A stretch of 59,931 nucleotides of DNA, counting the filler. It is 7 parts of 7 records of this genome, joined end to end, with 100 filler letters (N's around TTAATTAATTAA, not from the genome) between each part and the next. Parts side by side here need not be neighbours in the genome. Positions count along the whole stretch, not along the records: positions 11,179 to 19,605 come from SRR31156797_23943; 6 more parts are not named here. One strand, written 5' to 3'. Below the pieces are notes generated by a model. The model had not been told where the DNA came from and did not search any database. It saw nothing but the letters and a program-made list of their open reading frames with translations. How positions within the stretch are numbered: position 1 is the first letter of the stretch; each line of letters begins with the position of its first letter. Position numbers and translations under genes: made by a program. Below, in pieces: positions 16,354-19,551 of the stretch.

Positions 16354-18051
16354 TTATTTCTTCCTATACTTTGGTTTTGGAAGTATCGGTCCGCGAGATT
16401 TTCTCTGAGTCTTTTTCTGGATCTCAATGTTTGAAAGAAGTACTGAAGGACTTATTGTTGAAACAGGGACCATTCCGCTTTCAGCTCCGCAAAATCCGTT
16501 GAAAACTTCATAATCCTTTCCTGTTGCTATGATATTGTCGATTGCGGCAAGCGGTGTTCCAATAATTTCGGCTCCTCTTACAAGCTCTTCCTTTCCATCA
16601 GGATAAACCTTATAAACCAACTTGGCTGCTCCCCTAAAAGATTGCTCTCCATAAGAAGAAGTGTTTGTTGATCCACCTGAAGAACCTTTAATAATTAGGC
16701 CATATTCTTTTTTTAGTCTCTTCACTTCTTCAAGCAACATCTTTTTAAGTTCTTTATAGCTGAACTCCTTATGTGATTTAACTATCGTTACACCCATTCT
16801 CGCCACTGGATTTCTTGTTCCCTGCGCTCTTCCATGCCCATTCGACTTTGTAAACCCATTAACAGGGGTTCTTGAAAGCAGATAGTTTTTCAGGATTCCC
16901 TTTTCTACCAGAGAGACTTTTTGAGCCAAAACTCCTTCCTGATCATATTTGTAGTTGCCGACAAGTGTTTTCTTGTTAAAAACCTTCCTGGTGGGATCAT
17001 CCATCATTGAAATAAATAAAGGCATTATCTTTTTACCAACCTTTCCTTTGAATGTCTGCCCTGATCTTCTGCTGAACTGTCTTTCACCTTCGAGCCTGTG
17101 CCCTATCGCTTCGTGAAAAAGAATCGAGGCCGGTTCAGGCATAAGAAGTGCAGGACACGAAACAGGATCTATAACAGGAGCTTTTTTAAGCTTGTCAATT
17201 GTATCAAGAATACCCTTTATCTCCTTTTTTAAACCGGAAGTGCTTGGCAAATTCGAAAAAGAATTAACATTAAAACTTCTGTAATCCTCAACCCTTTTGC
17301 CATCATCAGCAAGAGCCGAGGCATAGATGTAGAGAGAAATATAGTTTCTATTCTGAATAACTCTGGTTCCTTCTGTATTTATAAAATATTCTGCATAGTT
17401 TGTAACTCCCACAGAAACACTGGAATCCATAATATGTCCATGTTTGTTAAACTGCCTGGAAAGTTCTTTGATTTTCTTTTCCCACTTCTTTGCATCAATC
17501 TTTATAAGGTTTTCCTTTTCATAATAGATAACTTTTTTTTCTTTAGTAAAAGCATCTCTGTTCTTTTCATCTTCATCGACCTTTTCGTAAACATTCTTTG
17601 TTTTCTTGTTATGAAACTCAGTTAAAGCTTTTTTATAGGCTGAATCCGTAGCAGTCCAGAATGCGCTGCGGAAGGCAAACTCATTGATCTTTTTTTCAAA
17701 AGGAAGCGTTGCATAACTTGTACTTCGACCGTATCTCCAGTTGGAACTACCTTTGGTTTGATCATCCTTATAACTTCCAATCCTAATCTCAACATTAGCT
17801 GAAGCTCTGTTGTAATCGCTTGATTCTATAATGCTGCCATCTTTGCCGGAGATCTTATAGCCTGTGTTTTCTACCAGTCTATACGAAATGAAATAAGGTT
17901 TTTCGTAATCATCAACTTTTAGTTTCTTAGCTGAACGCTGTAACTCTTTATTCATTGAATTCATTATATCCGTCTGTCTTTTGTTGAGCTTTGCAGCAAA
18001 AGCACCGAATGCAAATGTTACGATAAGAAGAAATGCTAGAATCTTTCTCAT
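16354..18051 (-). CDS. TldD/PmbA family metallopeptidase with signal peptide
   Basis: FHEAIGHRLEG zinc motif, DQEGV, SNGHGR, ELVRG, GFCGAESG..VPVS. Start placed at MRKILAFLLIVTFAFGAFA (signal peptide). Confidence 0.88.
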   Translation of the reverse strand: MRKILAFLLIVTFAFGAFAAKLNKRQTDIMNSMNKELQRSAKKLKVDDYEKPYFISYRLVENTGYKISGKDGSIIESSDYNRASANVEIRIGSYKDDQTKGSSNWRYGRSTSYATLPFEKKINEFAFRSAFWTATDSAYKKALTEFHNKKTKNVYEKVDEDEKNRDAFTKEKKVIYYEKENLIKIDAKKWEKKIKELSRQFNKHGHIMDSSVSVGVTNYAEYFINTEGTRVIQNRNYISLYIYASALADDGKRVEDYRSFNVNSFSNLPSTSGLKKEIKGILDTIDKLKKAPVIDPVSCPALLMPEPASILFHEAIGHRLEGERQFSRRSGQTFKGKVGKKIMPLFISMMDDPTRKVFNKKTLVGNYKYDQEGVLAQKVSLVEKGILKNYLLSRTPVNGFTKSNGHGRAQGTRNPVARMGVTIVKSHKEFSYKELKKMLLEEVKRLKKEYGLIIKGSSGGSTNTSSYGEQSFRGAAKLVYKVYPDGKEELVRGAEIIGTPLAAIDNIIATGKDYEVFNGFCGAESGMVPVSTISPSVLLSNIEIQKKTQRKSRGPILPKPKYRKK

Positions 18052-18106
18052 TTTATAGACCCCCAAAAGTTTAAACAAAGCGCTGATCATTAAAATTTAA
18101 TAGAAG

Positions 18107-18135
18107 ATTTTAACATGTCGTTAATGGCATAGCAA
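18107..18135 (-). promoter_or_regulatory. Sigma70-type promoter for the TldD-like gene
   Basis: Minus strand TTGCTA-17 nt-TAAAAT with extended -10 TG. Confidence 0.6.
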
Positions 18136-18360
18136 AAAAAAAGAAAGAAAGCGCCCTTCCTGTAAAGATTTTGGAACCAGATATGGAGTGAAAAATTAGG
18201 GAACAAGGTGGCAGATACACAGGAAGAAAAAGGACTTGTAAAGTATGGTGTAGGTGTTAATCTCAAAACCAGTATCAGGTGTGTAACTGTCTCAGTAAAT
18301 CAGTCAGGAGATTAGAAATTCGCTAAGTCCAAGAGCAGGGCGCCAAACGCCACCTTGTAT
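18134..18360 (-). ncRNA. Candidate structured non-coding RNA (~225 nt), class not recognised
   Basis: Starts at the expected TSS of a TTGACA-17-TATATT promoter, has at least six complementary helices including crossing ones, ends in a U-rich tract, and has no sizeable ORF. Confidence 0.65.
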
Positions 18361-18365
18361 AACTT

Positions 18366-18394
18366 AATATAATGCACCCGCTTTCGTTTGTCAA
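18366..18394 (-). promoter_or_regulatory. Near-consensus sigma70 promoter for the candidate ncRNA
   Basis: Minus strand TTGACA (18394-18389), 17-nt spacer, TATATT (18371-18366). Confidence 0.75.
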
Positions 18395-18564
18395 GGGCAA
18401 AAGTCTAAAAATATCAATAAAATTAATCACTTGTAGTCTTTTTGCTTCATTCCGTATCATTTTATAAACAGCACAAGTTTGAAACAACCCTTTATTGGCA
18501 AGGGTTTAGAGCATCTGTGTTTTATCTAGAGAATTATTTAAGTTTTTTTGAAATTTTTCTAATA

Positions 18565-19551
18565 CTACTCAACACCGACGATAGCTTTGATATACTGCTG
18601 CCTTTCCCAAGCTTGTGGATCATCCACGTTCTTATGATTAAGCTTGCCTTTAAACTCATCAATTGAGTTAAAGCCCTTCTCTTCCATCCACTCCATGATC
18701 TCAAGGTTCATCTTTGCAATATATTCAATTCCTTCTTTGTAAACTGAGCTGACAACCTGAACTGAATCGGCACCTGCAAGAAGCATCTTTACAACATCAG
18801 AACCTGTCTTTACACCTCTGGATGCAGAAAGAGAGAGTTTTGTCTGACCTGAAAGAAGTGATATCCATCTAATAGTTTCAGTAATATCCTTTCTTGATGA
18901 TCTGATATAACCGGGAATGAGTTCCATTTTATCAATATCAATGTCAACCTGATAGAATCTATTAAACAGCACAACACCTTGTGCACCGTAATTTTCAAGA
19001 AGTTTGACCATTCTGCTGATATTTGTGAAGTTCTGCCCCATTTTTACTGAAACAGGAATGTTAAGTGCTTCTTTAATAGCTTTGAATGTATTTATATACT
19101 CCTGCGTGATCTGATCGTCATTCTTTTCCATGTCATGAGTTACATGAGAAATATTAACCTCAAGAGCATCAGCTCCGGCGTTTTCGATCTTCTTTGCAAA
19201 TTCAACCCAATACTCAGTTGAAATACAGTTAACACTTGCGATCACAGGGATCTTGAGCTCTGCTTTTGCATCTTTAATAAGTTTAATGTATTTATCAGGA
19301 CCGAAATTCATGCTTACCTGAGAAATGTATTCAAGAGCTTCCGAATGAAAAGAAGCATACATTCCCTGTGCTGCACTTTTAATTCTTTCTTCAATTATCT
19401 GCTCTTCAAAAAGTGATTTAAGAACAACTGCACCTGCACCTGCCTTTTCGATCATTCTGAGATTTTCAATTGAATTTGTTAGTCCGCATGAACCGACAAC
19501 TACAGGACTGTCAATCTCGAGTCCGAGATACTTAGTTTTAATGTTACTCAT
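18565..19551 (-). CDS. Dihydroorotate dehydrogenase-like flavoprotein
   Basis: TKYLGL, GAGAVVLKSLFEEQI, IPVIASVN, GADALEVN, PVSVK, VLFNRFYQ, LLAGADSVQ. Start placed at MSNIK. Confidence 0.88.
   Translation of the reverse strand: MSNIKTKYLGLEIDSPVVVGSCGLTNSIENLRMIEKAGAGAVVLKSLFEEQIIEERIKSAAQGMYASFHSEALEYISQVSMNFGPDKYIKLIKDAKAELKIPVIASVNCISTEYWVEFAKKIENAGADALEVNISHVTHDMEKNDDQITQEYINTFKAIKEALNIPVSVKMGQNFTNISRMVKLLENYGAQGVVLFNRFYQVDIDIDKMELIPGYIRSSRKDITETIRWISLLSGQTKLSLSASRGVKTGSDVVKMLLAGADSVQVVSSVYKEGIEYIAKMNLEIMEWMEEKGFNSIDEFKGKLNHKNVDDPQAWERQQYIKAIVGVE

Follow-up and report, generated by a model that had tools for sequence, protein, structure and literature searches.

The window, by which we mean the whole 59,931-nucleotide (nt) stretch of DNA analysed here, carries on its minus strand an intergenic element between a dihydroorotate-dehydrogenase-like gene and a TldD-like protease gene, for which a sequence-only reading had proposed a pseudoknotted RNA gene with its own promoter. 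Comparison with homologues makes it very probable that a genuine gene lies in this intergenic stretch, transcribed by itself into a folded RNA of ~220 nt. The coordinates which that reading gave for helices, promoter, 3' tail and U-rich tract all proved exact when the minus strand was read back, and the parts of the locus are as follows.

18453–18486, minus strand: upstream block (TGTTT at 18486–18482, TGTTT at 18470–18466, ATACG at 18457–18453), a possible regulator-binding site
18366–18394, minus strand: sigma-70-type promoter TTGACA-17-TATATT, 11 of 12 consensus matches (-35 box TTGACA at 18394–18389, -10 box TATATT at 18371–18366, spacer of 17 nt)
~18360 to ~18140, minus strand: predicted RNA gene, ~210–225 nt, intergenic
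18349–18360, minus strand: predicted 5' end at ~18360, placed from the promoter, and 5' strand of helix P1, ACAAGGUGGC (18358–18349), with its partner at 18212–18203
18338–18343, minus strand: 5' strand of helix PK1, GCGCCC, complementary to GGGCGC at 18156–18151; the pairing would cross P1
18325–18330, minus strand: 5' strand of helix P2, GGACUU, with its partner AAGUCC at 18237–18232
18238–18324, minus strand: hypervariable interior of the P2 domain, holding two inner helices and five UGA triplets
18314–18308 with 18264–18258, minus strand: inner helix of UAAUCUC with GAGAUUA, read from the sequence
18306–18301 with 18289–18284, minus strand: inner helix of UGACUG with CAGUUA, read from the sequence
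18232–18237, minus strand: 3' strand of P2, AAGUCC, partner of GGACUU
18219–18226, minus strand: 5' strand of helix PK2, CUUCCUGU, complementary to the tail part ACAGGAAG
18203–18212, minus strand: 3' strand of P1, GCCACCUUGU, partner of ACAAGGUGGC
18164–18202, minus strand: C/U-rich linker, probably single-stranded, with the motifs UUCYYU and GUUCC..AUCU (18177–18166)
18151–18163, minus strand: 3' tail, ACAGGAAGGGCGC, in which ACAGGAAG is the 3' strand of PK2 and GGGCGC the 3' strand of PK1
18134–18150, minus strand: U-rich tract, a probable intrinsic termination site

Homologues of the element

Taken by itself, the window sequence displays a pattern weakly above chance, a perfect helix of at least 10 bp arising in three of 300 dinucleotide shuffles; its folding energy is no evidence, and the reality of the element therefore rests on its homologues. 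The TldD-like neighbour gene led to a related genome (G001, locus L001; genomes, contigs and loci are denoted G, C and L), whose record is titled as an uncultured Spirochaetales metagenome-assembled genome and in which the element stands at the end of a different contig, a comparison across 487 nt giving 75% identity and the element by itself 80%. Conservation between the two is arranged in blocks, comprising the promoter hexamers, the 5' segment, a central block, the P1 return strand and the tail. BLAST matches occurred in eight of 101 genomes related to G001, including G081, whose match was set aside because it covers 22 nt only, to the U-run; a motif pattern search of the 23 genomes in G001's family found nine places in eight genomes and newly added G005. 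A pattern scan of metagenomes returned 19 loci, among which five are true homologues (L035, L037, L039, L041 and L045); the remaining 14 are fortuitous hits within GC-rich coding sequence. Across the 330 nt shown, L035 and L039 appear identical to G007 and L037 to G009, while L041 is a new sequence and L045 is the full form of a truncated G004 copy; the metagenome contigs with the element derive from activated sludge and other sources.

The comparison set comprised 11 distinct sequences (the window and 10 homologues, 215–255 nt), from which a covariance model, R1, was built. Eight of the homologues come from seven related genomes, and two are known solely from metagenome contigs. R1 scored 133–214 bits in eight genomes among the 39 searched for the phylum and gave weak matches only beyond those eight (E 0.003–0.1), the three weak matches with an alignment shown covering only the U-rich 3' third of the model. 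Within the genomes searched, no member of the family was met outside one small, phylum-level clade, and phage and plasmid collections contained no match to the element. Although G001 bears the label Spirochaetales, the genome collection searched has 36 genomes for its order, identical to those for its class, and 39 for its phylum, and so the carriers belong to a small, deep lineage and not to the mainstream spirochaetes. G004 has two diverged copies of the RNA, on contigs C3 and C210 (L023 and L027; full form L045), which are 20 substitutions apart; each adjoins a copy of the dihydroorotate-dehydrogenase-like gene and one lies at a contig end, an arrangement more suggestive of a bin that mixes two strains than of true paralogues.

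Conservation of the promoter, helices and 3' end

A promoter accompanies the element in every sequence. The -35 box is TTGACA in 11 of 11, and the -10 box is TATATT in nine, with TATAGT in G005 and TATTAT in G006, each agreeing with TATAAT at five of six positions; the spacer is 16–17 nt throughout and variable in sequence, and the distance from the -10 box to ATACAAGG is exactly 5 nt in all 11. Further upstream, at fixed positions counted from the -35 box, all 11 carry TGTWT (-89 to -92) and ATACR (-61/-63), and nine of 11 carry a second TGTWT (-74/-76), which together with ATACR makes an imperfect inverted repeat, TGTWT-N8-ATACR. The window and all 10 homologous loci keep the same order of TGTWT, ~15 nt, TGTWT-N8-ATACR and then ATGA. 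Because this block is retained also in three copies with a different upstream gene, it belongs to the RNA gene, and it is probably the binding site of a regulator.

P1, a 10-bp helix in the window, contributes nine aligned pairs that are all paired in 11 of 11 sequences. In G009 the two strands read ACAAGGCGGC and GCCGCCUUGU, a single double change from U-A to C-G that is likewise seen in the printed sequence of L037; the P1 3' strand and the 6 nt that follow it are 75–94% identical across homologues. P2 (GGAC/GUCC) is present at the equivalent place in nine of 11 sequences, and in eight of 11 the best partner of nt 24–38 is found immediately 5' of the P1 return strand; this partner ranks second by 0.1 kcal/mol in L041. 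Both the MAFFT and the model-based (Infernal) alignments misplace the columns of the P2 3' strand in the window's lineage, and for this reason P2 was tabulated by script. In register, position 29 is C-G in six sequences and U-A in two, position 34 is likewise C-G in six and U-A in two, and position 35 is U-A in three and A-U in one. Position 30 is a U-G wobble in five sequences, which would be A-C on the opposite strand; these wobbles therefore point to an RNA of the minus strand, as the sequence-only reading had argued from G-U pairs. That reading had also asked for covariation among homologues; P1 and P2 show compensatory changes, whereas PK1 does not covary and the inner helices are not conserved.

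The PK1 strands, GCGCCC and GGGCGC, do not vary in any of the 11 sequences, and 97% of cells are paired. A slide of the 3' partners by 1–3 columns lowers the paired share of all three helices from 90.5% to 39–47%. Taken together, the sequences support well a conserved promoter, the P1 and P2 helices and the invariant complementary GC hexamers. After GGGCGC, all 11 have a U-rich run. There is no local hairpin ahead of this run, a simple terminator scan makes no call, and the sole conserved partner strand of GGGCGC is the 5' GCGCCC, ~190 nt upstream.

In the window the tail ACAGGAAGGGCGC is complementary to GCGCCCU (18343–18337) as well as to CUUCCUGU (18226–18219), and the sequence-only reading had proposed two tail pairings accordingly. 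The first corresponds to the invariant hexamers. The second, CUUCCUGU with ACAGGAAG, ranks first among the tail's possible pairings inside the RNA in the window's lineage alone (the window, G001 and L041, -9.6 kcal/mol), and G006 has an analogue of different sequence as its best pairing (CCCCG..UUAG with CUAA..CGGGG, -13.1 kcal/mol). Elsewhere, the tails of G009 and G004 find their best partner in the P1 return strand (-10.4 and -10.8 kcal/mol), those of G007 and G002 pair best with CCCUUU inside the variable domain, and a PK2-type pairing is not the tail's best partner in G005 or G010; the purine stretch before GGGCGC itself differs between lineages. PK2 would then be real for the window's lineage and not family-wide. 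Duplexes between tail and variable domain clearly beat those of shuffled tails in four of 11 sequences (no more than 5 of 200 shuffles as good); the other seven were matched by 10–170 of 200, and no helix of this kind is conserved.

The interior of the P2 domain (~90 nt) evolves quickly, with 49–52% identity to other lineages and 69–70% within the window's lineage, while the conserved RNA blocks are 74–94% identical and the neighbouring dihydroorotate-dehydrogenase-like gene 70–82% at the DNA level. The two inner helices sit here among insertions and deletions and are not conserved across the family; inspected by eye, the three closest sequences would each allow helices at comparable places, with differing letters. 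The variable domain of L023 (the second G004 copy, G004b) contains a (NNUGAN)7 array at nt 38–74, with seven UGAs at exact 6-nt spacing. In L022 (G009), nt 38–74 carry six UGAs on the same 6-nt grid with AGA in the empty seventh slot, L045 (the first G004 copy, G004a) is also phased, L041 has five at 6–7 nt spacing, and other lineages are without phasing. GUUCC(G/A)AUCU-like motifs occur once or twice in the linker of most homologues and are duplicated in G007, G002 and G005; no conserved pairing partner was found for the linker motifs.

Known RNA classes, coding potential and genomic setting

The element corresponds to no catalogued family among those searched, in agreement with the failure of the sequence-only reading to match it to transfer-messenger RNA (tmRNA), RNase P, signal recognition particle (SRP) RNA or riboswitches. 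A scan of the whole window with Rfam 15 gave no match at the gathering score; a permissive scan of 17950–18650 gave five, at E 1.2–9.3 and all far below threshold; and the loci of six relatives gave two (E 0.65 and 0.66), neither of them within the RNA. As identities, SRP, tmRNA and RNase P RNAs were rejected, RF00169, RF00023 and RF00010 being over their cut-offs at other loci in three of three relatives (G005, G001 and G009). ARAGORN reported no transfer RNA (tRNA) or tmRNA in the window, and a tRNA-like reading of GGUUCC..AUC fails for want of a T-stem or an ARAGORN call.

The suggestion of a divergent 6S RNA has not survived. The element resembles 6S RNA (RF00013) in size, in its strong promoter and in a possible protein-binding role, whereas it has no RF00013 match at E up to 10, is not a rod with a central bubble, and has a minimum-energy fold that is not closed from 5' to 3' end as a rod. 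Moreover, five of five relatives carry a separate, full-length RF00013 match (positions 1–187, 33.5–45.3 bits) at another locus. These probable 6S genes, at C14 of G001, C39 of G002, C1 of G005, C195 of G006 and C216 of G009 (L028–L032), fall under the cut-off of 46.4 bits, and the Rfam 6S model seems to under-call this lineage.

In the hepatitis delta virus (HDV) fold, the strands follow the order of 5' helix, second helix, hairpin, first return, linker and second return at the 3' end. The element shares this order, that of a nested double pseudoknot; unlike HDV-like ribozymes, however, it has a P1 of 10 bp and not 7, no G-U pair at a cleavage site, a ~100-nt domain in place of P3/L3, no identifiable catalytic C and a 5' end set by a promoter. 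An HDV-like ribozyme was accordingly rejected, there being no HDV-family match at E up to 10, and among ribozyme models the Rfam scan gave only a RAGATH-1 hammerhead (E = 4.5), on the strand opposite the element.

Messenger RNAs of type I toxins (of the hok and aapA1 type) are alike in their long-distance pairing between 5' and 3' ends and in a Shine-Dalgarno-like AAGGUGG that would be sequestered in a helix, whereas the element has no conserved open reading frame. A recurring short frame started by GUG (MA[IFL][SG]AL...) is lost in G009 and no frame is common to all 11 sequences, while a frame of alternating Asp and Glu over the phased UGA array (G004 and G009) is broken by stops and not kept. 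Substitutions per codon position in close pairs number 8/6/6, 6/2/3, 12/11/11 and 10/11/14, without a period of three, and insertions or deletions of 1–2 nt separate close relatives. Since the frame is lost, the substitutions are unphased and such small insertions and deletions occur, the element is judged not to be coding.

The dihydroorotate-dehydrogenase-like gene (NCBIfam NF005741, 406 bits) ends ~150–215 nt upstream on the same strand in eight of 11 copies. It occurs in the eight RNA-carrying genomes and in G021, where no RNA follows it; because the clade is shallow, the linkage may reflect inheritance only. The next downstream gene is readable in 10 copies. In six of these it lies on the same strand, 61–157 nt away, and is of four unrelated kinds: the TldD-like protease in the window, a lipoprotein of ~500 amino acids (aa) in G001 and L041, in G007 and G002 an unrelated protein (at least 467 aa), and in G006 a 208-aa protein. 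The other four, namely G005, G009 and the two copies of G004, face a convergent gene 10–27 nt away. The ~500-aa lipoprotein gene of G001, absent from the window, stands between the RNA and the TldD-like gene, and in L041 the same gene comes directly after the RNA.

The possibility that the element is a cis-acting 5' leader, riboswitch or attenuator of the gene downstream (the TldD-like gene in the window) has to be judged against this arrangement. A same-strand gene does lie close by in six of the 10 readable copies, and a terminator-like 3' end could serve as an attenuator. Nevertheless, no same-strand downstream gene is constant and a convergent gene follows in four of 10 copies, and for these reasons a leader is rejected and we regard one as very unlikely; the promoter found in 11 of 11 sequences bears out the view of the sequence-only reading that the RNA is free-standing. 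A further point against a leader is a separate promoter-like site for the TldD-like gene in the window, TTGCTA-17-TAAAAT at 18135–18107; as the promoter which that reading gave to this gene, it is a weak match (9 of 12 consensus positions).

Proposed fold and competing explanations

Our best explanation, which we consider moderately probable as a whole, is a stand-alone small RNA (sRNA) gene on the minus strand, driven by its own promoter, folded through P1, P2 and PK1, and acting in trans. The near-consensus sigma-70 promoter, with the inverted repeat upstream as a probable regulator site, would drive the gene; the 5' end of the transcript would pair with nt 149–158 to form the 10 bp of P1, and P2 would close the fast-evolving insert of ~90 nt. 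The G-rich 3' tail would pair back to GCGCCC at nt 18–23 (PK1) and, in the window's lineage, also to CUUCCUGU (PK2). Because GGGCGC has no local partner, PK1 is the only candidate for a terminator hairpin, and this long-range GC stem directly before the U-tract may be the intrinsic terminator, such that the RNA would bring about its own termination by bending its tail round to the 5' region, with both ends locked in a pseudoknotted core. The predicted strand order, P1a, PK1a, the P2 hairpin, (PK2a), P1b, linker, (PK2b) PK1b, gives a pseudoknot, which may alternatively be viewed as a three-way junction of PK1, P2 and PK2 with P1 tying the 5' end into the PK2 loop. The C/U-rich linker (UUCYYU, GUUCC..AUCU) is the likeliest functional surface because it has no conserved partner; if it stays unpaired, its most likely action would be in trans, through pairing to purine-rich, Shine-Dalgarno-like segments of messenger RNAs or through binding protein.

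The element resembles the stand-alone regulatory sRNAs of other bacteria in its conserved sigma-70 promoter and the regulatory block that precedes it, in a candidate 3' end of GC stem and U-tract, in a conserved, probably unpaired C/U-rich segment, in a narrow range and in variable neighbour genes. It differs in being longer than most, in a candidate terminator stem that is not local and spans ~190 nt to the 5' region, in a 10-bp helix at the 5' end that crosses this stem, and in its hypervariable insert.

Several observations weigh against this explanation. Every sequence derives from one narrow clade. PK1 is without any covariation, there being none to count because both strands are invariant, and the case for this pairing would rest on conservation and position. 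The overall covariation score of the MAFFT alignment is reached by 269 of 500 column shuffles, which are not separated from the observed score because most columns never vary. P2 was not found at its place in G006 or G010, and a PK2-type pairing is the best tail partner in only four of 11 sequences. A search for targets complementary to GUUCCGAUCU with up to three mismatches gave 30–56 hits per genome against 16–27 for a reversed control (only ~1.5–2.5-fold), an excess that is uninformative. Finally, the minimum-energy structure from RNAfold includes all four nested helices, and yet at -41.2 kcal/mol (z = -0.37) it is equalled or bettered by 65 of 200 shuffles, and the opposite strand has a fold just as good, at -47.3 kcal/mol (z = -0.78).

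Fold stability no better than that of shuffled sequences, together with paired positions that for the most part never vary and so are uninformative either way, might suggest that there is no functional RNA, and that the conserved blocks are signals at the DNA level (promoter, operator, a neighbour's terminator) with incidental helices. We think this highly improbable, since only an RNA of the minus strand would account for the compensatory changes of P1 and P2 and for the U-G pairs, conserved blocks continue 150–210 nt downstream of the promoter, and a conserved strong promoter leading into ~220 nt that end in a GC stem and U-tract has no other obvious purpose. A two-state switch accepts the RNA and supposes that the P1 state and the tail state alternate, as set by a ligand, a protein or temperature, thereby controlling termination or the exposure of the C/U segment. 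Calculated with nested models, the P1 and PK1 (tail) states differ by 1.0–6.5 kcal/mol in 11 of 11 sequences, a gap compatible with a pseudoknot in which both form at once as well as with a switch, and the tail of G009 and G004, AAGGGGUGG, resembles the P1 5' strand and finds its best partner in the P1 3' strand. P1 and PK1, however, share no nucleotides, and loops of 4, ~125 and ~45–60 nt would allow both at once; with no ligand-type conserved internal loop recognised and no riboswitch match in Rfam, such a switch seems fairly unlikely.

A protein-binding decoy or scaffold, comparable to CsrB or 6S, would use the UGA or GUUCC..AUCU repeats to bind several copies of a protein. The variable domain has 2–9 UGA triplets where 1.2–2.1 are expected, the regular grids of G004b and G009 are suggestive, and the GUUCC..AUCU motif is doubled in three genomes. 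The CsrB/RsmZ sponges likewise combine a short motif, repeated in a domain of variable length, with a stand-alone gene and terminator. Their motif is GGA and not UGA, however, and the phasing here is specific to some lineages, with two UGAs in G007 and G002 and five irregular ones in the window; the array could be mere replication slippage, and no candidate protein partner was identified. We are fairly doubtful of this explanation for these reasons. Joined to it, a pseudoknotted RNA that terminates itself would be of a new kind in a little-studied, spirochaete-like phylum, with the UGA insert as a multivalent pad for a ring-shaped or multimeric RNA-binding protein, making a Csr- or TRAP-like decoy in which motif and scaffold are both new; this combination strikes us as distinctly unlikely.

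The element apparently represents an uncatalogued family of structured sRNA of narrow range. The interpretation in the sequence-only reading holds up for the most part, except for its inner helices and for a second tail pairing common to the whole family. The sequence-only reading had spoken of an undescribed RNA class, and while the absence of an Rfam match agrees with this, 'class' is generous for a family with strong hits in eight of 39 genomes of one small group. If transcribed as predicted, it adds an uncatalogued structured RNA family of unusual architecture, in which the 5' end is tied to a downstream loop by a helix of 10 bp and the stem of the terminator would draw on the RNA's own 5' region across ~190 nt. 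The element is thus a natural test of intrinsic termination by long-range helices, and its conserved upstream inverted repeat points to a regulator, although the narrow range and few sequences limit its immediate importance. Those parts of the literature that our search reached described no regulatory RNA for the carrier lineage, under its uncultured Spirochaetales label, and contained nothing bearing on the element.

Three minor observations concern the sequences themselves. The window contains 528 N at several intergenic places, in 12 equal-length runs that are arranged in pairs, and none falls within the element. The G001 assembly breaks inside the 3' tail of the RNA, between the end of C188 and the start of C56 (L002 and L001), with an overlap of ~50 nt. 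A hairpin on the minus strand, AACCCUU-GCCAAUA-AAGGGUU at 18486–18506, lies 3' of the dihydroorotate-dehydrogenase-like gene and is conserved in G001; the simple terminator scan made no call there, and the hairpin may be the terminator of that gene.

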